A stretch of 64,000 nucleotides of DNA. Source: Escherichia phage ECML-359. Position numbers and translations under genes: made by a program. Shown here piece by piece: positions 53,147 through 63,732 of this stretch; the first letter of the stretch is position 1, and every line of letters starts with the position of its first letter. The notes under the pieces were generated by a model. That model did no database searches. It was not told where the DNA came from and saw only the letters and a program-made list of their open reading frames with translations. The stretch lies in the sequence record OL631482.1, one strand, 5' to 3'.

Positions 53147-56100
53147 ATGGCCGATATTTTAAAACCAGCATTCAGAGCAACATCCGGTCTCGATGCTGCT
53201 GGTGAGAAAGTCATTAATGTCGCAAAAGCTGATTACTCAGTTTTATCAGACGGCGTTAACGTAGGTTTCTTTATAGAAGAAAACACAGTTCAACAATATG
53301 ATGCAACACGCGGATACAAAAAGAACTTTGCAGTTATTAATGATAACCGTATTTGGGTTGCTCAACGTGATATTCCGGCACCAGCTGGAGCATTTACCCC
53401 TCAGTATTGGTTAGCAACTCGTACTGACCCGAAATGGGAAACTGTTGCATCTCCAACTCGTCAGCTTAGCTCCGGGGAATTTATCGCAGTCGACTCAGCT
53501 GCAAGCTTTACCACATTTACATTGCCTCCGAACCCGACTGATGGTGATACCATCGTTATTAAAGATATCGGCGGTAATACCGGTTATAATGAAATTAAAA
53601 TCCAGTCAAGCAACGTGCCTGGCCAAGGTAACCAAAAGATTGTTCGCTTTGGTAATCAGTATTCAGAAGTTTTAATTACCAAACCATTCTCTTATAACAT
53701 GCTTATCTTTTCAAACCGCTTATGGCAATTTTGGGAAGCAGGTAACGAAGAACGTGGTATCAGAGTAGAACCGTCGACCGGACGTTTCCATGCACAAGCT
53801 GGCGACTTTATTATGCGTCGTTATACAACTGGTGCACCGATTACTTTCATTCTTCCTAAGTATGCAAACCAGGGTGATATTGTCAAATCTGTTGATATCG
53901 ATGGCATGGGGCCAACGTTCCACCTGATGGTTGAAACCTTTGACACCAGTTCCAGTCTTGGTAAAGCTGGCCAGCATCAAATGGAATTCCGTACCACAGG
54001 TGATGGTTTCTTCGTTTATAATGCTGCCGAAAAACTCTGGTATGTTTGGGACGGTGATTTTAAAACTCGTCTTCGCGTTATTCGCGACAGCGTTAAACTT
54101 TTACCAAACGAAAGTGTCATTGTATTTGGCGAAGATAACTCAACTCCAGCAACGATTAATATCGATTTGCCAACTAATGTTTTGCAAGGCGACATTGTTA
54201 AAATTGCATTGAACTATCTCCGTAAATCACAGACTGTTAATATAAGAGCTGCTGTTGGCGATAAGATTGCAACTGACATTAAATTACTGCAATTCCCTAA
54301 ACGTTCCGAGTATCCACCAGATACAACTTGGGTGCTGGTTGATTCATTGACCTTTAATGGCAACATCAGTTATACTCCGGTTATTGAATTATCATATGCA
54401 GAAGATACAGTGTCTGGAACAAGTTATTGGGTTGTCGCTCAGAACGTCCCGACTGTCGAACGAGTTGACTCATTAAATGATTCCACGCGTGCACGTCTTG
54501 GTGTTATTGCTCTGGCAAACCAGACTCAGGCAAACGTTGACCATGAAAATAACCCAGAAAAAGAACTCGCAATTACCCCTCAGACTTTAGCCAACCGTGT
54601 TGCTAAAGAGAACCAACGAGGCATTGCCAGAATCGCAACGACTGCCCAAGTAAATCAGAACAGTGATTTTGCATTTGTTGATGATGTAATTATTTCTCCG
54701 AAAAAACTCAATGAACGTACGGCAACAGAAACGAGACGTGGACTCGCAGAACTCGCCACACAGCAAGAAACCGATGCGGGTGTAGATGATACCACAATTA
54801 TAACTCCAAAGAAACTGCAAGCTCGCCAGGGCTCAGAATCGCTATCCGGTATTGTAACTTACGTTTCAACGACTGGTGCAACTCCTGCTGCTTCGCGTGA
54901 ATTAAATGGTACAAACGTTTATAATAAAAATACGGTTAATCTGGTTGTTTCTCCGAAAGCTCTTGACCAGTACAAAGCTACTTACACTCAACAAGGTGCG
55001 GTTATTCTTGCGGTTGAAAGTGAAGTAATCGCTGGTACTTCTCAATCTGGCTGGGCAAACGCAGTCGTTACTCCAGAAATGTTGCATCGCAAAACTGCTC
55101 TTGATTCCCGTATCGGTTTAATCGAGATTGCTACTCAGGTTGAAACAGATGCAGGAACCGATTATACCAGAGCTGTGACTCCTAAAACGTTAAATGACCG
55201 TAAAGCATCAGAAACGTTAACCGGCATAGCCGAGATTGCTACGCAATCAGAATTTGATACTGGAACTGATGATACTCGTATCTCAACTCCATTAAAAATT
55301 AAAAATAGATTTAATAATACTGCTCGTACTTCTGTTAATGCATTAAGTGGTTTAGTAGAAACAGGGACGCTCTGGGACCATTATAGCCTGAATATTCTTG
55401 AAGCAAATGAAACTCAACGTGGTACAGCAAGATTAGCGACTCAGGGTGAAGTCAATACAGGCACTGACGATAAAACAATCGTTACTCCGCTTAAATTGAT
55501 GTCGAAAAAAGCCACTGAAAACGCCGAAGGTATTGTTCGCATCGCGACAAACACAGAAGCAACAGCAGGCACATCAAAAGTCTTGGCCATTAGTCCGTCT
55601 GCGCTGAAATATATTGCCCAAACGGAAACAACTTGGGAAGCATCTGAAACACTGCGTGGATTTGTTCGTTTATCTTCCGGTGCAGCTACTTCGGCCGCAA
55701 CTACAACGACGGGCGCGGGATTTACATATGAAAATGGTGTGTATACCCCGGACCCAAGTAAACTGGTTAGCTATGCGAAATCTGGATATGCAGTTTCGCC
55801 TTACGAATTAAACCGCATATTGCAAAACTTCTTACCGATAAATGCGATGGCTGTTAATGCTGAAAAACTGGATAACCTCGATTCGACCCAGTTTATTCGT
55901 CGTGATATTGCTCAGACCGTTGAAGGCGTATTAACCCTTACTAAGCAGACAAATATCTCTGCTCCGGTTGTATCGACGAGCACTGCGGTGTTTACTGATG
56001 TAACGGCTGGTACTTCGACGTTCGGAACTGTGAATGTTGTTAATGGAACTAACAAGTGGAAAATCACTGCTCCTTCCACCGGAACGACAATGACTATTGG

Positions 56101-57103
56101 TGATACGACTAACGTATTGACATTAAACACCGCCTCGGGTAATGCTGCAGTATTGAACAACCTTAGCGCCGGAAATGATGTTCAAGCCAAAAATAATTAC
56201 GTTCTAAATGGTCGTACTATCGCAACCACGACGGGTGAAGTTTCTGGTGCAACTTTGTCTCTGGGTGATAACTCACAGAATTTAGTGCTCAAAACTCTTG
56301 ATGCTGGTAATATCATAGCAAATGGTGGCGGTGCATTTAAAGTTCTGACCGAGAAAAACGCAGTAGAAATTGTTGATAGAAACTTTGTTAACCAGGCTGG
56401 TGATACAATGTCTGGTGTACTCCGTGTGAATGCTCCAGTCCGTGTATTCGGTACGAAACCAAGTCTTATCGCACAAGCTCCGACTGCGGATACTGTTGGT
56501 TTCTGGTCTGTCGATATCAATGATGAACCGACTTATAGCCAGTTCCCTGGTTATTGGACAATGAAGTTAAAACGTCAAGTAAACATTGATACGGTTCAAA
56601 CTAAACCTGCTGGGGTAACTGATGAAGTTTGGAATGCTTCTGGTTGGTTAACTGAAAACGGAACTTTTGCCTCGCCCGCTATTCGTTATCGTACTGATGA
56701 TGGTACACTCGGTGATGAAGTATTAGGTAGCTCCGGACAGAAACTGCGCGGAACCTGGTTTGACTATTCAGTTCGTGATAAACAAATTAAATATCCTGGT
56801 ACATTGACTCAGTTTGGTAATACGCTGGATTCGTGCTATCAAGATTGGGTTTGTTATCCAACTGGATTGAACGGTGGTACTATTCGTTATACTCGTACAT
56901 GGCAGAAAAATAAATCAGCATGGACGACTTTCGCAATGGTTTATACCGCGGATAACCCTCCGTCTGCAGAGGATGTTGGCGCATTACCGGCTGACAACAC
57001 AACGATGGGGAACTTAACCATTCTTGATTGGTTGCGTATCGGTAACGTGCGTATCATCCCAGACCCGACCACTAAATCCGTTAAGTTTGAATGGATTGAA
57101 TAA
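53147..57103 (+). CDS. 34: Long tail fibre proximal subunit gp34
   Basis: 1318 aa; TATAAATA at about 53109-53116; internally repetitive fibre sequence; synteny. Confidence 0.95.
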   Translation: MADILKPAFRATSGLDAAGEKVINVAKADYSVLSDGVNVGFFIEENTVQQYDATRGYKKNFAVINDNRIWVAQRDIPAPAGAFTPQYWLATRTDPKWETVASPTRQLSSGEFIAVDSAASFTTFTLPPNPTDGDTIVIKDIGGNTGYNEIKIQSSNVPGQGNQKIVRFGNQYSEVLITKPFSYNMLIFSNRLWQFWEAGNEERGIRVEPSTGRFHAQAGDFIMRRYTTGAPITFILPKYANQGDIVKSVDIDGMGPTFHLMVETFDTSSSLGKAGQHQMEFRTTGDGFFVYNAAEKLWYVWDGDFKTRLRVIRDSVKLLPNESVIVFGEDNSTPATINIDLPTNVLQGDIVKIALNYLRKSQTVNIRAAVGDKIATDIKLLQFPKRSEYPPDTTWVLVDSLTFNGNISYTPVIELSYAEDTVSGTSYWVVAQNVPTVERVDSLNDSTRARLGVIALANQTQANVDHENNPEKELAITPQTLANRVAKENQRGIARIATTAQVNQNSDFAFVDDVIISPKKLNERTATETRRGLAELATQQETDAGVDDTTIITPKKLQARQGSESLSGIVTYVSTTGATPAASRELNGTNVYNKNTVNLVVSPKALDQYKATYTQQGAVILAVESEVIAGTSQSGWANAVVTPEMLHRKTALDSRIGLIEIATQVETDAGTDYTRAVTPKTLNDRKASETLTGIAEIATQSEFDTGTDDTRISTPLKIKNRFNNTARTSVNALSGLVETGTLWDHYSLNILEANETQRGTARLATQGEVNTGTDDKTIVTPLKLMSKKATENAEGIVRIATNTEATAGTSKVLAISPSALKYIAQTETTWEASETLRGFVRLSSGAATSAATTTTGAGFTYENGVYTPDPSKLVSYAKSGYAVSPYELNRILQNFLPINAMAVNAEKLDNLDSTQFIRRDIAQTVEGVLTLTKQTNISAPVVSTSTAVFTDVTAGTSTFGTVNVVNGTNKWKITAPSTGTTMTIGDTTNVLTLNTASGNAAVLNNLSAGNDVQAKNNYVLNGRTIATTTGEVSGATLSLGDNSQNLVLKTLDAGNIIANGGGAFKVLTEKNAVEIVDRNFVNQAGDTMSGVLRVNAPVRVFGTKPSLIAQAPTADTVGFWSVDINDEPTYSQFPGYWTMKLKRQVNIDTVQTKPAGVTDEVWNASGWLTENGTFASPAIRYRTDDGTLGDEVLGSSGQKLRGTWFDYSVRDKQIKYPGTLTQFGNTLDSCYQDWVCYPTGLNGGTIRYTRTWQKNKSAWTTFAMVYTADNPPSAEDVGALPADNTTMGNLTILDWLRIGNVRIIPDPTTKSVKFEWIE

Positions 57104-57111
57104 GAGGTAAT

Positions 57112-58242
57112 ATGGAAAAATTTATGGCAGAGTTTGGACAAGGATACGTCCAAACGCCAGTTATATCAGAAAATAATGCCGTTAAATTTAAAATGAGTAT
57201 AGCAGGGAGCTGTACTCTTTCCACGGTGAAATCGTATATCAAATTTCAGGATGAACGAATTGGACCAACTACTTTTGGTAATGGTCTGACTCTATTGGAA
57301 ATTGATACAACTACGAATAAAATTGTTAACACGAAAAACTATTCATTAACTAGCACACATGATGCAATCAGTCAGGCATTAATCACCTTTGTGGAATCTG
57401 TTCCAGCCGGAAGATTGATTGCTTTTATTTCTTCAGGGAAACTAAACGCATCACAGCCATTAATTGATTGGTTCCGTAAATGTGGTTCAAGAGCATTCCC
57501 AGATAAATGGCTGATTGATAAAGTTGATACATCGTACTCGGCTTTTTACATAACCGGCCGGAATGTAATTGTTTCGGAGCATGTTAAGTATAATGACGGG
57601 AAGTTAGTTGAGGATGTTTCGACTCCGCTTGAAGTCATTTATGATACCTTTAGTGATATAGGAGCAACAGGCTATCCTGTACGCATAACGGAAGACGAGA
57701 GCACGTATTCATCAACAGGTGATGGAACATCAACCACAATTAAAAGGTTCCCCACAGAGGACCTGGTGACTCCTATGGACACCTATAACCTTTTACCTTT
57801 GGATGTGCTTTACTTGAAGTTTCAGATGTCATTTGACGCTGCACTGAAAGCTGCGGGGACCGTAAGGACTTCGGTTCGATTCTTTAAAAGCCCCAGCACT
57901 TCGCCGATATCAAATACAAACATCGATATCGCAGCAAACGTTCCTGCCGGGGCTTGGGCGAGTTTCGAAAGATATGTCGAGATTCCGCCAGGAGCTGATG
58001 GCTTTACAGTAGTAACATCAAGAACTGTAGCTACCGGAACTGGGTCAATACGCAATATTGTTATTGGTGAGATAACCAGAGGTGACTCTGCGTTCAAACC
58101 GGCTGAATTTGGTGTCAACGGCATAAGGATGTCATATGCAAACGATGCAACAAATACAGGCAATACAATTGTAACATTCCCGGATGCGCAAGCTCCAAGA
58201 GCCGGCAAGATATACGCAGCCGAACTACGAGAAAAACAATAG
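57112..58242 (+). CDS. 35: Long tail fibre hinge protein gp35
   Basis: 376 aa; synteny; followed by a hairpin and T-run terminator. Confidence 0.85.
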   Translation: MEKFMAEFGQGYVQTPVISENNAVKFKMSIAGSCTLSTVKSYIKFQDERIGPTTFGNGLTLLEIDTTTNKIVNTKNYSLTSTHDAISQALITFVESVPAGRLIAFISSGKLNASQPLIDWFRKCGSRAFPDKWLIDKVDTSYSAFYITGRNVIVSEHVKYNDGKLVEDVSTPLEVIYDTFSDIGATGYPVRITEDESTYSSTGDGTSTTIKRFPTEDLVTPMDTYNLLPLDVLYLKFQMSFDAALKAAGTVRTSVRFFKSPSTSPISNTNIDIAANVPAGAWASFERYVEIPPGADGFTVVTSRTVATGTGSIRNIVIGEITRGDSAFKPAEFGVNGIRMSYANDATNTGNTIVTFPDAQAPRAGKIYAAELREKQ

Positions 58243-58309: not shown

Positions 58310-58957
58310 ATGGCAGATTTAAAACTAGGCTCAACAGCCGGAGGTTCGGTCCTCTGGCACCAGGGTAATTTCCCATTAACACCAGTCAGTAATGACTTAT
58401 ATTTCAAAACTTATAAAATTTATTCCGAATATAACAAGCCACAAGCAGTCGATAACGATTTTGTTTCTAAAGCTCTGGGTGGTAATTATAAAGCAAATGT
58501 GTATTTCGAACAGGGTCTGACATTTAACGATTCAAATGGTTACGGGATTAAGTTAGGAGCAAGAACAGGCGGAACACCATTTACAGCATCTTTCCGTATT
58601 AAAGGACCATTCGGATTTGAGACTGAAACGGGAACACCATTTGTTATTTTTGACCCTGATACTACGACAGGAGCAAAACGTCTTACTGTTATGGGTGATA
58701 CGTTAGCTCGACAAATTTATGATGAAACAGGTCGTGTATTTTCTCCAGGGAATACTCCGTCAAAAGCTCAAGTTGGTCTTGGTAATGTAACTAACCAGCA
58801 ACAGGTAGAACTAAATAATAGTACATTGCAAACAATGACAGGTAACTTGTCAGCACCTAATTTCTTCTCTAGGAACCCAGCATCAGACCCGGCCCATGTG
58901 CCTCGTTTTGACCAAATCGTTCTTAAAGACTCCGTACAAGATTTTGGATATTATTAA
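58310..58957 (+). CDS. 36: Long tail fibre distal connector gp36
   Basis: 215 aa; TATAAATA at about 58267-58274; synteny. Confidence 0.85.
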   Translation: MADLKLGSTAGGSVLWHQGNFPLTPVSNDLYFKTYKIYSEYNKPQAVDNDFVSKALGGNYKANVYFEQGLTFNDSNGYGIKLGARTGGTPFTASFRIKGPFGFETETGTPFVIFDPDTTTGAKRLTVMGDTLARQIYDETGRVFSPGNTPSKAQVGLGNVTNQQQVELNNSTLQTMTGNLSAPNFFSRNPASDPAHVPRFDQIVLKDSVQDFGYY

Positions 58958-58965
58958 GAGGCATT

Positions 58966-61900
58966 ATGGCTACTTTAAAACAAATACAATTTAAAAGAAG
59001 TAAGGTTGCCGGCGTTCGTCCGGCGCCAACAGTTCTTGCTGAAGGTGAACTGGCTATCAACCTGAAAGACCGCTTACTTTTTACTAAAGATGACACCGGC
59101 GCCATTATCGACCTTGGTTTTGCCAAAGGCGGTAATATTGATGGTAATGTTATTCATAACGGTAATTACAATCAAACTGGTGATTATACCCTGAATGGTA
59201 CTTTTACCCAAACTGGTGATTTTAATTTAACCGGCATTGCTCGTGTAACTCGCGATATTATTGCCGCGGGTCAGATAATGACTGAAGGTGGTGAACTTAT
59301 TTCTAAGAGTGCATCGACTTCGCATCTTCGTTTTTTTGATGGTGCATCACGCGAACGCGGTATTATCTTTTCTCCTAACAATGCGGGTTTGACAACTCAG
59401 GTAGTTAATATACGAGTGCAAGATTATGCCGCTGGTAGCGAAAGCACTTACGCGTTTTCAGGCAATGGTCAATTTACTTCACCTGAAGTATCAGCATGGA
59501 AATCTATTTCATCCCCACAAATTCTGACTGATAAAGTTATTACAAATGGTAAGAAAGCTGGTGATTATGATATCTATTCATTAGCAAATAATAATTCTAA
59601 CACAGATAAAAATAATTTACGTGTTGTGCGTACTGATGCAGCCGCCGCAATGCTCCATGAAATTTGTGAAAATAACGGTATCAGTTGGTATTCTGGTTCA
59701 ACCCCTACTGATTATATGTTATCTTTTGCTTATTCAGGTGGTTTTCAAGCTGGACATTCGATTGCAGTGGGTATGGAATCAGGGCCTATGACATATTCAG
59801 CCTTAGGTAAGGGTTCTATTGCTCTTGGTGATAATGACACCGGGTTAAAATGGTACCAAGATGGTTATTTCTATGCAGTAAACAATGGTACGAGAACTTT
59901 CCTTTACAGCCCTGAATCAACTGTAAGCCTTAGAAAAATGGTCATGGGTTATTCTGTAAACGGTAACGATTTAACTACGCCGCCGACAGAAAACTATGCG
60001 CTTGGTACCGTTGTTACTTATCATGATAATAATGCCTTCGGTGATGGACAAACTCTTTTAGGATATTATCAAGGTGGAGCATATCACCACTATTTTCGTG
60101 GTAAAGGCACTACAAACATTAACACCACGGGTGGTTTGTTGGTTACTCCGGGTAATATCGATGTGATTGGCGGTTTAATTAATATCGACGGCCGCAGTAA
60201 TGCTTCAACCTTACTGTTTAGTAGCTATACGTCTGGTCAAAGCTCTGTCGATAATATGAATATACGCGTTTGGGGCGATACTTTTACCACTGTAGACGGT
60301 ACTCGCAAAAACGTAATGGAAATATCTGATGCTACTAGCTGGATGCAATATATTCAACGAACAACTGCTGGTAAAGTCGAATCGGTTCTAAATGGCTCCC
60401 AGATTGTTAATGAAAACCTGACCGTAGTAAAAAATGCTACATTTGATGGTACAATCAGCGCACATGGTGAAATTGCAGGTAATGCTGTTAATGCCCTTAG
60501 AATTTGGAACGACGATTACGGTGCTATTTTCCGTCGCTCAGAAGGAAGTCTTCATATTATTCCTACAGCGTTTGGTGAAGGACAGGGCGGTGATATCGGT
60601 CCACTTCGCCCATTTAGTATGGCTTTAGATACTGGTAAAGTTACTATTCCAGATTTACAATCAAGTTACAATACGTTCGCAGCAAACGGCTATATTAAAT
60701 TTGTTGGTCATGGGGCTGGTGCAGGCGGTTACGATATTCAATATGCACAAGCAGCTCCTATTTTCCAAGAAATTGATGATGCCGCAGTAAGTAAATATTA
60801 TCCTATTGTTAAGCAGAAATTCTTACAAGGAAAAGCTGTTTGGTCTTTAGGTACTGAAATTAATTCCGGGACTTTTGTTTTACACCATCTTAAAGAAGAC
60901 GGGACCGAAGGACATACCTCAAGATTTAATGCCGATGGTACAGTTAACTTCCCCGATAACGTGCAGGTTGGTGGTGGTGAAGCTACTATTGCCCGAAATG
61001 GTAATATCTGGTCCGATATTTGGAAAACGTTTACTTCAGCAGGCGATGTAACTAATATTCGCGATGCCATTGCTACTCGTGTTGCTAAAGAAGGCGATAC
61101 AATGACAGGCAAGCTGACAATAGAAGCCCCTGGTGATGCTTTAGTATTAAGAACAACTACAGGTAATAGTTCACATATCCGTTCTGATGTAAATGGTACC
61201 GGCAACTGGTATGTCGGTAAAGGTGGCAGCGATAATGGAATAGGCCTTTACAGCTATGCTACTAACTGTGGCCTGTATATCACCAATAACGGTGAATTCA
61301 ACGTAGACCTTTCTGGTGCTGGTCTGGCAATGCAAATGAATTATTATCGCATGTATGTTAACGGTCGAGCATGGGTTAATACTCAAGGTCATGGTTACGG
61401 AAACCAATGGCAAACAGAAGCTCCTTATTTCGTTGACTTTGGTGAATCCGTTCCTAAAGATAGTTATATGCCAATTATCAAAGGAAAAAGCACTCTAGCT
61501 ACTGAAGGATATTCTACTAAAGCAGACTTCGGTATTATTCGATTAGGTGGAGCGGCTACCTGGGGTTCTGCTGTTATTCGTGTGGGTTCTGCTGAAAGCG
61601 GCGATGCAAGCCATCCTAATGCGATATACGTTTTTGGCGCCGACGGCACCTTAACCGCCCCTAATGCTTTGAATGCTGCGTCTCGAATGGGCATTGGTAC
61701 ATCATGTTCATTACCAAATGCTTCTATTGCTATTGGCGATAACGATACAGGTCTTGCTACTAGAGGTGATGGTAGTCTAGGCGCGTATGCTAATGCGCAG
61801 AGTGTATTTTTCTGGGAAGCTGGCGGTATTACGACCGAGCAAAATAAGTTTCTAAACGTTAACGCCGGTATGTATGTTCGTGACAACATCGATGTTAACG

Positions 61901-62232
61901 ACGTTTATATCCGTTCTGATATTCGCTGTAAGTCAGAAATTAAGCTTATAGAAAATGCCCAAGAGAAATCTAAACTCTTAGGCGGTTATACTTATCTGCT
62001 TAAAAACTCTGTCACAGATGAAGTTAAACCGTCTGCTGGTTTAATTGCTCAGGAAGTTCAAGAAGTATTGCCTGAACTTGTGACTGAAGATAAAGAGACC
62101 GGCTTACTTCGTTTAAACTATAACGGTATTATCGGTTTAAATACTGCTACTATCAACGAGCATACTGACGAAATCAAGGAATTGAAATCTGAAATTGCTG
62201 AGTTGAAAGCATTAATTAAATCATTATTATAA
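58966..62232 (+). CDS. 37: Long tail fibre distal subunit gp37 with C-terminal intramolecular-chaperone-like domain
   Basis: 1088 aa; N-terminus [13 protein letters not shown] matches gp37; last ~100 aa ([30 protein letters not shown]...[19 protein letters not shown]) resemble the self-cleaving chaperone domain of fibre/endosialidase proteins. Confidence 0.9.
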
Positions 62233-62236
62233 GAAA

Positions 62237-62250
62237 GGGCCTTCGGGCCC
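62237..62250 (+). promoter_or_regulatory. GC hairpin with UUCG tetraloop between genes 37 and 38, abutting the gene 38 Shine-Dalgarno
   Basis: GGGCC-ttcg-GGCCC then tGGAGGttttt-ATG; no long U-tract, so more likely an RNA structural element than a strong terminator. Confidence 0.5.
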
Positions 62251-62261
62251 TGGAGGTTTTT

Positions 62262-63041
62262 ATGGCAGTAGTAGGAATTCCTGGTTGGATTGGAACATCA
62301 GCAGTGGCTGAAACAGGCCAGCGATGGATGTCTGCAGCGGCTGGACAGTTAAGATTGGGACTACCGGTATCAATGTCGCAATTTGCTGGTCGGTCCCGTG
62401 AGATTATTCACACACTTGGTGCGGACCACAACTTTAACGGGCAATGGTTTAGAGACCGTTGCTTTGAAGCCGGCGGTGCTCCTATAGTGTTTAATATCAC
62501 AGGCAACTTAGTATCATATACTAAAGATGTTCCGTTGTTCTTTATGTACGGTGATACCCCTAACGAATATGTTACTTTGAATATTCATGGTGGTGTTCAT
62601 ATGTGGGGCCGAGGTGGCAACGGTACAGTAAATGGAAGCCCGGGCACTAATGGTGGTGACGTAATCCAAAATGATATTGGTGGACGACTTCGCATTTGGA
62701 ATTATGGTGTGATAGCCTCCGGTGGTGGTGGCGGCGGTGCCGCATCATTACAGAATAGTTGGCCTGCAAATGCTACAGCAGGTGGCGGTGGCGGCAGACC
62801 ATTTGGTCTCGGCGGCGGTGGTGTTAATTGGCCAGGCGGCAATGCTAGTTATGATGGTCCAGGTGGCGGTGGTAATGCAAGCCAATTTGGCGGTGGCAAT
62901 GGCGGTGATGCTGGAGGCGCTGGTGGCGCTGGATGGGGTAATAACTTATCCAGGTCGGGTGGTGGTGCTCCTGGTAGAGCAGTATTCGGTTCCTCCCCAT
63001 CATGGGGCGCGACAGGCACTATCTACGGCTCATGGTTATAG
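62262..63041 (+). CDS. 38: gp38 receptor-recognising adhesin (T2 type, glycine-rich motifs)
   Basis: 259 aa; conserved N-terminal attachment domain ([11 protein letters not shown]...[15 protein letters not shown]...[41 protein letters not shown]) then poly-Gly motifs separated by variable segments. Confidence 0.85.
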
Positions 63042-63052
63042 TACATAAGCGC

Positions 63053-63060
63053 TATAAATA
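63053..63060 (+). promoter_or_regulatory. Late promoter for holin gene t
   Basis: TATAAATA about 18 nt upstream of the t ATG. Confidence 0.75.
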
Positions 63061-63078: not shown

Positions 63079-63732
63079 ATGGAACCAAAAGTAGGAATAT
63101 CAATACCCGACCTACTTTTTGGACTTCTTGATAGAATTTTTAAAGATAATGCGACCGGGAAAGTTGTTTTTTCCCGGGTACTAGTTATTGTTCTATTATT
63201 TTTAATGGCGGTAATCTGGTATAAAGGTGATGCACTTTTAGATGCGTACAGGGATGCTTCATATGCCTCATACACTGAAATGATAAGGCAAGACCAGGAT
63301 AACAGATTTAAAATTGCAGCTATCGAGCAAATCCAGATAGTCCACTCGTCAAGTGGGGCAGACTTTACAGCAATATATTCTTTTAGGCCAACTAACCTTA
63401 ACTACTTTGTGGATATGGTGGGTTACGAGGGGATATTGCCTGATACAGTCGACGAAAAAAATTTAGGTGGGTTTCCAATAGATAAGACTTCAGCGGAATA
63501 TTTGGCGGGGGTTAATGGTAATTATTTTGAATCCAGTGTGGAATCTGTATTCTTACCAACAAAGAAAAAAAGCAGCTTCACATATATGTTCAGCTGCCCA
63601 TTCTTTAATTTGGAAAACGTTTATGCAGGCACAGTCTCACTGTACTGGTATAAGCAAAAACCCGACCTTGGTTTTGATAGGCTTTCTTCTATGTGTGGAC
63701 AAGCAGGTCGTACGCTCGGGCGTACACGTTAG
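63079..63732 (+). CDS. t: Holin T
   Basis: 217 aa; LLFGLLDRIFKDNATGKV...single transmembrane segment...large periplasmic domain; matches T4 holin; TATAAATA at about 63053-63060. Confidence 0.9.
   Translation: MEPKVGISIPDLLFGLLDRIFKDNATGKVVFSRVLVIVLLFLMAVIWYKGDALLDAYRDASYASYTEMIRQDQDNRFKIAAIEQIQIVHSSSGADFTAIYSFRPTNLNYFVDMVGYEGILPDTVDEKNLGGFPIDKTSAEYLAGVNGNYFESSVESVFLPTKKKSSFTYMFSCPFFNLENVYAGTVSLYWYKQKPDLGFDRLSSMCGQAGRTLGRTR

Follow-up and report, generated by a model that had tools for sequence, protein, structure and literature searches.

The 64,000-nucleotide stretch of Escherichia phage ECML-359 analyzed here (the window) carries, on its plus strand, gene 37 for the precursor of the distal long-tail-fiber subunit (58966..62232; 1088 aa) and gene 38 for a monomeric fiber-tip adhesin (62262..63041; 259 aa), followed 3' by the holin gene t (63079-63732). 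The DNA is 99.8% identical at the nucleotide level to the deposited genome of Escherichia virus TH41, and by sequence the phage is a Dhakavirus/Gaprivervirus nearly identical to TH41. The order of gene 37 (with an S74 end), gene 38 and holin gene t is common to T2, T6, RB69, JS98, VR5, AlbertHofmann and CF-SP2. A block-wise identity profile resolved gp37 into a mosaic in which some blocks resemble VR5 and others JS98/AlbertHofmann. The open reading frames and coordinates of both proteins agreed with those described in a sequence-only reading of the window, which had placed a receptor-binding module at 61900-63041. The end of this range was correct, but its start was not that of a gene, as position 61900 corresponds to D979 of gp37 and the range takes in only the last 111 aa of a protein whose gene begins at 58966.

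Right after the stop codon of gene 37, a GC-rich, terminator-like hairpin (AGGGCC-UUCG-GGCCCU; 62236..62251, plus strand) was found, and the Shine-Dalgarno sequence of gene 38 (GGAGG; 62252-62256, plus strand) abuts its 3' side. The hairpin recurs in 13 T-even phages, T4 among them, with stem substitutions that compensate one another. Its thermodynamic significance was unsupported for the 61-nt region (fold z-score of -1.05), and the case for it comes from this conservation with compensating substitutions.

The C-terminus of gp37 matched the Pfam profile Peptidase_S74 (PF13884) over its full length (profile 1-58/58; aa 984-1040; E 3.9e-12; 46.7 bits, with a cut-off of 22 bits). The proposal that the last ~100 aa form an intramolecular chaperone (IMC) that is removed by autoproteolysis was therefore borne out at the level of the domain, which extends from Ser984 to the end of the protein (aa 984-1088; 105 aa; 61915..62229, plus strand) and was delimited by Pfam, alignments, AF2 modeling and Foldseek. 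Profile searches of the PDB matched S16 gp37 (6f45_A; E 6e-52, and 9e-35 with the single sequence), the MyRF ICA (7dc3; 1e-9), a tail fiber (8jov; 1e-6) and phi29 gp12 (3gud; 0.03). The AF2 monomer model of a 117-aa C-terminal fragment (pLDDT of 82) contained a long terminal helix at fragment residues 81-116, i.e., a coiled coil at about aa 1052-1087 of gp37. Foldseek related this model to 7dc3 (probability of 1.00; TM of 0.61-0.62) and to four of five chains of 3gw6 (probability of 0.90-0.97).

A predicted catalytic dyad of Ser984 (61915-61917, plus strand) and Lys989 (61930-61932, plus strand) lies in the motif DVYIR^SDIRCK, in which the serine is the first residue of the S74 domain and the lysine follows five residues on. 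The 12-residue peptide that had been quoted for the serine in an SD.R.K context corresponds to aa 983-994 (61912-61947). In agreement with this reading, both residues align with the serine and lysine of S16 gp37, 8jov and phi29 gp12; in MyRF 7dc3, which carries S587A, their partners are A and K. The spacing is that of endoNF S911/K916, MyRF S587/K592 and T5 pb1 S1264/K1269 (PMC8326128, PMC4690869). Among 18 sequences, the serine was conserved in 17, and the aspartate and the lysine in all. A protein search by indexed words, with the 117-aa IMC as query, returned 15 short proteins, a sample that suffices for the dyad and is too shallow for a survey of the family. V, Y and R of the tip motif were unchanged in eight of eight gp37 C-termini. 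Arg972 and Arg983 are candidates for the upstream "sensor" arginine (R897 in endoNF, R1250 in T5), a region in which the alignment to solved structures is unreliable.

It is known for MyRF and endoNF (PMC8326128) and for T5 pb1 (PMC4690869) that the Ser-Lys dyad cuts N-terminally to the serine. In S16, the reported cleavage at DLNVS^SDRRIKK removes the last 113 aa of gp37 and exposes the docking surface of gp38 (PMC7917993), and for T2 and T6 the C-terminus of gp37 is described as cleaved and then capped by gp38 (PMC3157838, citing Drexler 1986). For the fPS phages, whose tip motif DVYIR^SD is also that of the window, the S16 site served as the basis for predicting cleavage at this motif (PMC7917993). 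By analogy, the conserved dyad and the S16/T2 precedent suggest that the gp37 domain releases itself, with a predicted cut at Arg983^Ser984 that would free 105 aa. The segment DVYIR (aa 979-983; 61900..61914, plus strand), delimited by motif conservation, would then be the mature C-terminus of gp37, the last beta-strand of the trimeric tip and the place at which gp38 docks.

The second protein, gp38, matched the Pfam profiles GP38 (PF05268; E 9e-82; 274.6 bits) and Gp38_N (PF21721; E 1.4e-17; 63.8 bits; cut-off of 25 bits for both), and the E-values of the S74, GP38 and Gp38_N matches rule out chance. PDB sequence matches were obtained with gp38 of PP01 (9v85; E 2.5e-73) and of S16 (6f45_D; E 6.9e-49). 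These were also the sole PDB fold matches of the AF2 monomer model (pLDDT of 89; pTM of 0.82), with a TMt of 0.92, an rmsd of 1.5 Å and 63% identity for 9v85 and a TM of 0.79/0.83 for 6f45_D. The model has the three-domain fold of a helical attachment domain, a beta-helix and a polyglycine-II sandwich. The attachment domain (aa 1-42; 62262..62387, plus strand), supported by the Gp38_N match, the model and the alignment, comprises three short helices (H10-18, H22-29, H38-41) with W9, W22 and Ser37. Thus, the N-terminal domain and the glycine motifs of T2/S16-type adhesins, as claimed from the sequence, were both found.

The glycine-rich receptor-binding region with the polyglycine-II sandwich (aa 116-238; 62607..62975, plus strand) was delimited by an entropy profile. 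Its poly-Gly runs occupy aa 116-121, 128-132, 153-159, 173-187, 199-204, 210-224 and 232-238. With borders taken from the structure of PP01 gp38 (PMC12892980), the plus-strand loops are A (aa 122-127; 62625-62642), B (aa 160-172; 62739-62777), C (aa 188-198; 62823-62855), D (aa 205-209; 62874-62888) and E (aa 225-231; 62934-62954). Among 120 homologues, the mean entropy ranged from 0.25 to 1.36 bits for the Gly motifs, against 1.80-2.61 bits for the variable segments, and many of the indel columns fell inside the latter or on their borders. This concentration of variability supports the assignment of host range to the segments between the poly-Gly motifs.

The three N-terminal tryptophans of S16 gp38 are prongs that insert into pockets of the gp37 tip (PMC6851490, summarizing Dunne et al. 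2018), and the third prong has been reported as conserved (PMC6851490). In the alignment with S16, T2, T6, RB69 and others, the window gp38 keeps W9 and W22, while the position of the third prong is Ser37 (codon TCA; 62370-62372). Across the window and 120 homologues, this position was W in 101 sequences, Y in 12, S in 5 (window included), N in 2 and a gap in 1. Since Y, S, N and a gap occur there, the third tryptophan characterizes most gp38 adhesins without defining them. Judged from the sequence, the exchange for serine may alter the docking of gp38 in detail. A sequencing error or frameshift patch was rejected as its origin: the same codon is present in TH41, the change from TGG to TCA takes two substitutions in an in-frame, distinct N-terminal allele, and serine occupies the position in four other database clusters as well. 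Covariation of the gp37 tip with the loss of the tryptophan was likewise discarded, as VR5 gp37 is 98% identical to that of the window over the last 210 aa and VR5 gp38 keeps the tryptophan.

Comparison with T2 and S16, as proposed by the sequence-only reading, placed the locus among their tips. The Pfam architectures of gp37 and gp38 are identical in T2, and the motif VYIRSDIR.K is present in both phages. T2 gp37 has 1341 aa, its IMC shares 16-34% identity with that of the window (50-aa blocks), and its gp38, which is 52% identical to that of the window, targets FadL (PMC8594841). With S16 (PDB 6F45; Dunne et al. 2018 as presented in PMC6851490 and PMC7917993), the window shares the gene order 37, 38, t, a gp37 S74 chaperone with SDxRxK and a gp38 with three domains. 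The two differ in the length of the IMC (105 aa in the window, 113 aa in S16), in the tip strand (DVYIR versus DLNVS) and at the third prong (Ser37 versus W36); the gp38 proteins are about 50% identical with unlike loops, and S16 uses Salmonella OmpC. S74 domains of other known systems (endoNF 3GW6, T5 pb1, phi29 gp12, MyRF ICA 7DC3) resemble that of the window in the Ser-x4-Lys dyad at the domain start, the small alpha/beta core and the long C-terminal coiled-coil helix, at a sequence identity of 11-21%. Removal of S74 would bare the docking site of a separate adhesin in the window, whereas it bares the receptor-binding surface itself in the other S74 systems.

Dependence on OmpF has been described for AlbertHofmann/Bas47 (PMC8594841), FL31/33/34 (PMC12032242), the Yersinia phages fPS-2/-90 (PMC7917993), RB69 and RB51 (PMC3157838; for RB51 also 10.64898/2026.04.02.716166). 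The gp38 alleles of RB69/RB51, Bas47, FL31/33/34 and fPS-2/fPS-90 are 85-92% identical overall to that of the window and share its length and Gly-motif register; unlike the window, they have another N-terminal allele and come from Mosigvirus/Tequatrovirus rather than Dhakavirus/Gaprivervirus. From aa 116 to 240, the window gp38 is 89-91% identical to those of AlbertHofmann, FL33, fPS-2, fPS-90 and RB69, and RB51 gp38 carries the same loop residues as these five. Because of this identity in the loop region and the matching loop residues of RB51, OmpF is probably the receptor of the window gp38.

These lines of evidence make it highly probable that the locus encodes the receptor-binding module at the distal fiber end of a T-even phage of the T2/S16 type, with a self-cleaving gp37 and a gp38 adhesin for which OmpF is the most likely target. 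In such a module, gp37 would be made as a 1088-aa precursor whose 105-residue S74 chaperone trimerizes via its C-terminal coiled coil and serves as the folding template of the trimeric beta-helix before it. After the fiber has folded, each chain would be cut between Arg983 and Ser984 by the Ser984/Lys989 dyad, and departure of the chaperone would expose a flat trimeric gp37 tip ending in DVYIR. A single copy of gp38 would dock on this tip by its N-terminal three-helix domain, and thereby be part of the virion, and would offer its five variable loops, carried on the polyglycine-II sandwich of Gly-rich motifs, to an outer-membrane porin. None of the observations speaks against this architecture.

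Related GenBank records label gp38 "distal long tail fiber assembly catalyst", which would fit a T4-style assembly chaperone not carried by the virion, with receptor binding left to gp37. These labels are annotation strings transferred from T4, while the RB69 and T4 records themselves state that the gp38 of the T2 subfamily is unrelated to that of T4 and is an adhesin. The 183-aa gp38 of T4 is an unrelated chaperone, and BLASTP of the window gp38 against it gave no similarity (best E of 0.99 over 14 residues), in contrast to the strong sequence and fold matches to two gp38 adhesins with crystal structures, one of which includes the gp37 tip. T4 gp37 is homologous to that of the window over aa 1-641 only, with 35% identity; it carries Collar/Phage_fiber repeats and its own Collar/needle receptor-binding tip, a domain that the window gp37 lacks, and is without S74. 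T4 shares the gene order and the GC hairpin after the gene 37 stop. The claimed departure from the T4 arrangement is thus well founded, and a chaperone role of gp38 is extremely improbable. Very unlikely, too, is that the S74-like domain persists on the mature fiber as a non-cleaving remnant, in which case gp38 would bind at another site, if at all. One of 18 homologues, that of P0128, has proline for the catalytic serine, so the family may include inactive members. The window gp37, however, keeps Ser984, Asp985, Lys989, the full-length domain and the terminal coiled coil; its counterpart in CF-SP2, an S16-like phage, shows 82-92% identity when the domains are compared in 50-aa blocks, and S16 is reported to autocleave (PMC7917993). 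The N-terminal docking domain of gp38 is intact as well.

The receptor assignment is the weakest link of the explanation. With the same architecture, the adhesin might, in place of K-12-type OmpF, recognize another porin such as OmpW or OmpC, or a particular form of the OmpF loops in wild E. coli, which is conceivable but considerably less probable. Between aa 116 and 259, gp38 of the window and of its subclade (TH41, NC-G, pEC-M719-6WT.2 and VR5) shows 12 substitutions relative to the tested OmpF binders (N127S, V161A, AP168-169PA, A199G, A203G, Y205N, T206A, R/W220A, D223A, H228N and I259L, from the binders to the window). Loops A, B, D and E account for seven of the 12 differences. Two of these, Y205N and T206A, directly precede Gln208 in loop D, and the loop-D and loop-E stretches read GGGGNASQF and GWGNNLS in the window versus GGAGYTSQF and GWGNHLS in the OmpF binders. 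Single loop substitutions can switch the porin: Q206L alone turns RB51 from OmpF to OmpW (10.64898/2026.04.02.716166), and host-range mutants of Ox2 are cited in PMC12032242 as having changed porin specificity in this way. No usable receptor experiment was found in the literature for TH41, NC-G, pEC-M719-6WT.2, UGJNEcP3/4, VR5 or Gaprivervirus/Dhakavirus; the Dhakavirus receptor entries found there name only a "hypothesized" FadL, for unrelated isolates. In favor of OmpF, the OmpF binders to which the receptor-binding region is so similar belong to two other genera and are nearly identical to each other there, Gln208 (RB51 Gln206) is kept, loop C is unchanged, and loops A, B and E are the same except for one or three changes each. 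That TH41-type gp38 is functionally distinct, by a two-prong or otherwise altered docking of Ser37 on the unchanged DVYIR tip and/or by loop-D/E changes that direct it to another porin or OmpF variant, appears unlikely; retargeting through the loop-D/E changes would parallel the single-residue switch of RB51 at the neighboring Gln.

The biology of the gp37/gp38 tip is already known, as the sequence-only reading had rightly remarked of the T2/S16-type tip, and the mechanism was reportedly established for T2 (1986-87), S16 (2013-2018) and PP01 (2026). The importance of the locus, the sole receptor-binding module within the window, lies mainly in annotation and practical use, and it opens no new biological question. 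The widespread mislabeling of T2-type gp38 as an "assembly catalyst" is corrected, the mature C-terminus of gp37 (...DVYIR) is predicted, and OmpF is proposed as the likely primary receptor. This may serve the choice of phages for cocktails and the engineering of host range by swapping gp38 loops.

A complete T-even long-tail-fibre operon occupies the final 11 kb of the window, with g34 (53147-57103), g35 (57112-58242), g36 (58310-58957), g37 (58966-62232; 1088 aa), g38 (62262-63041; 259 aa) and the holin gene t (63079-63732; Pfam Phage_holin_T, E 1.8e-66). The ORFs that open the window agree in length with T4 gp18-gp23, the genes from tail sheath to capsid; therefore, the short-tail-fibre gene 12 is not expected here. 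The g37/g38 pair is the sole receptor-binding module present in the window. Its DNA is 99.8% identical over the full length to Escherichia virus TH41 (MT446412, Gaprivervirus; an unannotated GenBank record) and 80-90% identical, in patches, to Dhakavirus and Mosigvirus phages, among them VR5, JS98, NC-G and PhAPEC2. In the hinge protein gp35, aa 57-128 gave a weak but above-threshold Pfam match to ILEI/FAM3 (E 1e-6; 29.5 bits, cut-off 27), an unexpected pairing.

The sequence-only reading had proposed a self-cleaving, chaperone-like gp37 C-terminus, and the peptide it quoted was located at aa 983-994. The complete Pfam profile Peptidase_S74 ('chaperone of endosialidase') matched aa 984-1040 (E 3.9e-12; 46.7 bits, cut-off 22). 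The last 210 aa matched the S16 gp37 construct in PDB 6F45 (E 9e-35) and the MyRF ICA domain, and a profile of eight phage gp37 C-termini, used as the PDB query, matched 6F45_A (6e-52), MyRF 7dc3 (1e-9), the tail fibre in 8jov (1e-6) and phi29 gp12 3gud (0.03). In all these alignments S984 and K989 fell on the S(A)/K pair. The catalytic-position Ser was found in 17 of 18 homologues, and the Asp next to it and the Lys in all 18. One S74-domain homologue, P0128, carries Pro instead (IRPDRRVK), which could mean a variant that does not cleave or an error in sequencing. In the AlphaFold2 model of aa 972-1088 (pLDDT 82), a small alpha/beta core is followed by a terminal helix of 36 residues; the PDB folds that matched it best were those of the MyRF ICA domain (prob 1.00, TM 0.62) and of 3gw6, the endoNF intramolecular chaperone (prob 0.90-0.97, four of five chains). 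Thus, the proposed domain was borne out.

It is known that Ser-x4-Lys forms a catalytic dyad with the cut N-terminal to Ser, as in endoNF (S911/K916) and MyRF (P586^S587/K592) (PMC8326128) and in T5 pb1 (T1263^S1264/K1269) (PMC4690869). In S16, gp37 sheds its last 113 residues by autocleavage at DLNVS^SDRRIKK, leaving the docking surface for gp38 exposed, and DVYIR^SDGRLK is the cut predicted for fPS phages (PMC7917993); the window protein reads DVYIR^SDIRCK. Because of the S74 match, the aligned and conserved dyad, these published sites and the model fold, gp37 is predicted to be cut between Arg983 and Ser984 (nt 61914/61915), which would release 105 aa.

The gp38 protein was assigned to the T2/S16 type, as had been suggested, by Pfam (GP38, E 9e-82; Gp38_N, E 1.4e-17) and by matches to both solved adhesins, PP01 gp38 (9v85, E 2.5e-73) and S16 gp38 (6f45_D, E 6.9e-49). 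These two were also the only PDB matches of its AlphaFold2 model (85-sequence alignment; pLDDT 89, pTM 0.82): 9v85 aligned over 218 columns (TMt 0.92, rmsd 1.5 A), and 6f45_D gave TM 0.79/0.83. The stated difference from T4 was verified directly: no similarity to the T4 gp38 chaperone was detectable (E 0.99), homology to T4 gp37 was limited to aa 1-641, and in place of S74 T4 gp37 has Collar and Phage_fiber repeats, whereas T2 gp37 and gp38 have exactly the Pfam architecture of the window proteins. A 303-aa protein from an E. coli assembly, P0079, combines PF13884 (S74) and gp38 domains in one ORF, apparently a fusion, or gene-calling read-through, of the gp37 chaperone end and gp38.

By block-wise identity, gp37 resembles VR5 at roughly aa 201-450 and 701-1088 and JS98/AlbertHofmann at roughly aa 51-200 and 501-700, in alternation. 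Compared in 50-aa blocks, its chaperone domain shares 82-100% identity with the corresponding domains of Dhakavirus phages, of AlbertHofmann (Mosigvirus) and of CF-SP2, an S16-like Gelderlandvirus; with T2 and T6 the identity falls to 16-34%. Modular exchange of this kind has been described at this locus before (PMC3157838). Also present in gp37 are a Gp34_trimer-like domain (PF21446, aa 444-550, E 2e-7) and a repeat, SIA(L/I)GDNDTGL...DG, mid-protein (aa ~283-300) and just before the tip (aa ~921-937).

Variable segments between the poly-Gly motifs of gp38, also anticipated from the sequence, were recovered as mean column entropy in a MAFFT alignment with 120 database homologues. The split was clean, with 0.25-1.36 bits in the Gly-rich motifs versus 1.80-2.61 bits between them (aa 122-127, 160-172, 188-198, 205-209 and 225-231), and many insertion columns lay within or bordered these segments. 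The five are the counterparts of receptor loops A-E, as defined by the PP01 gp38 crystal structure (PMC12892980); loop B was the least confident block of the receptor-binding region in the gp38 model.

OmpF dependence is shared by all of the closest gp38s whose receptor has been studied experimentally: AlbertHofmann/Bas47, with complementation (PMC8594841), FL31/33/34 (PMC12032242), the Yersinia phages fPS-2 and fPS-90 (PMC7917993), and RB69 and RB51 (PMC3157838; 10.64898/2026.04.02.716166). Aligned jointly, the AlbertHofmann, FL33, fPS-2, fPS-90 and RB69 proteins were near-identical in aa 116-240 across Mosigvirus and Tequatrovirus, and RB51, aligned separately, had the residues of RB69 there. 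The window gp38 was 89-91% identical to each of the five in this region. With TH41, NC-G, pEC-M719-6WT.2 and in part VR5, it forms a sub-allele with 12 differences from the OmpF group (N127S, V161A, AP168-169PA, A199G, A203G, Y205N, T206A, R/W220A, D223A, H228N, I259L), seven of them in loops A, B, D and E; a literature search found no receptor experiment for this sub-allele. In RB51, the single change Q206L switches the receptor from OmpF to OmpW (10.64898/2026.04.02.716166). The equivalent by alignment, Gln208, is kept in the window gp38, but the two residues preceding it are changed. Judged from these sequence relationships, OmpF is probably the receptor.

Between the genes, a GC-rich hairpin closed by a UUCG loop (62236-62251; AGGGCC-UUCG-GGCCCU) lies 3 nt past the stop codon of g37 and directly adjoins the Shine-Dalgarno sequence of g38. 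A hairpin at this position recurs in 13 T-even phages, T4 among them, irrespective of gp38 type, with compensating changes in the stems; the fold z-score of the window hairpin in a 61-nt context was not significant. The element may stabilise the mRNA or act in attenuation. At 63053-63060, 18 nt upstream of the t start codon, TATAAATA, the T4 late-promoter consensus, was found. It recurs in five of seven compared relatives (JS98, VR5, AlbertHofmann, RB69 and CF-SP2), T2 and T6 have AATAAATA instead, and the fPS-2 annotation places a 'predicted late promoter' there. A motif of this kind is absent ahead of g38, in keeping with a shared g37-g38 transcript.

In S16 gp38, three Trp at the tips of the three N-terminal helices, called conserved, plug symmetric pockets of the gp37 tip (PMC6851490). 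The window protein has W9 and W22, but Ser37 (TCA, 62370-62372) at the third position, where S16, T2, T6, RB69, JS98, VR5, AlbertHofmann, FL33 and the fPS phages have Trp. A point error was ruled out, as Ser37 sits in a distinct N-terminal allele; TH41 has the same Ser. Among the window protein and 120 homologues, this position was W in 101, Y in 12, S in 5 (window included), N in 2 and a gap in 1; the third prong is therefore usual, not obligatory. Alignments of gp37 and gp38 with relatives revealed no compensating change in the gp37 tip. Ser37 alone can claim some novelty, and it is minor. Overall, the initial observation is confirmed and its interpretation supported: the module is a textbook T2/S16-type fibre tip of an already sequenced lineage, and its biology is already known.
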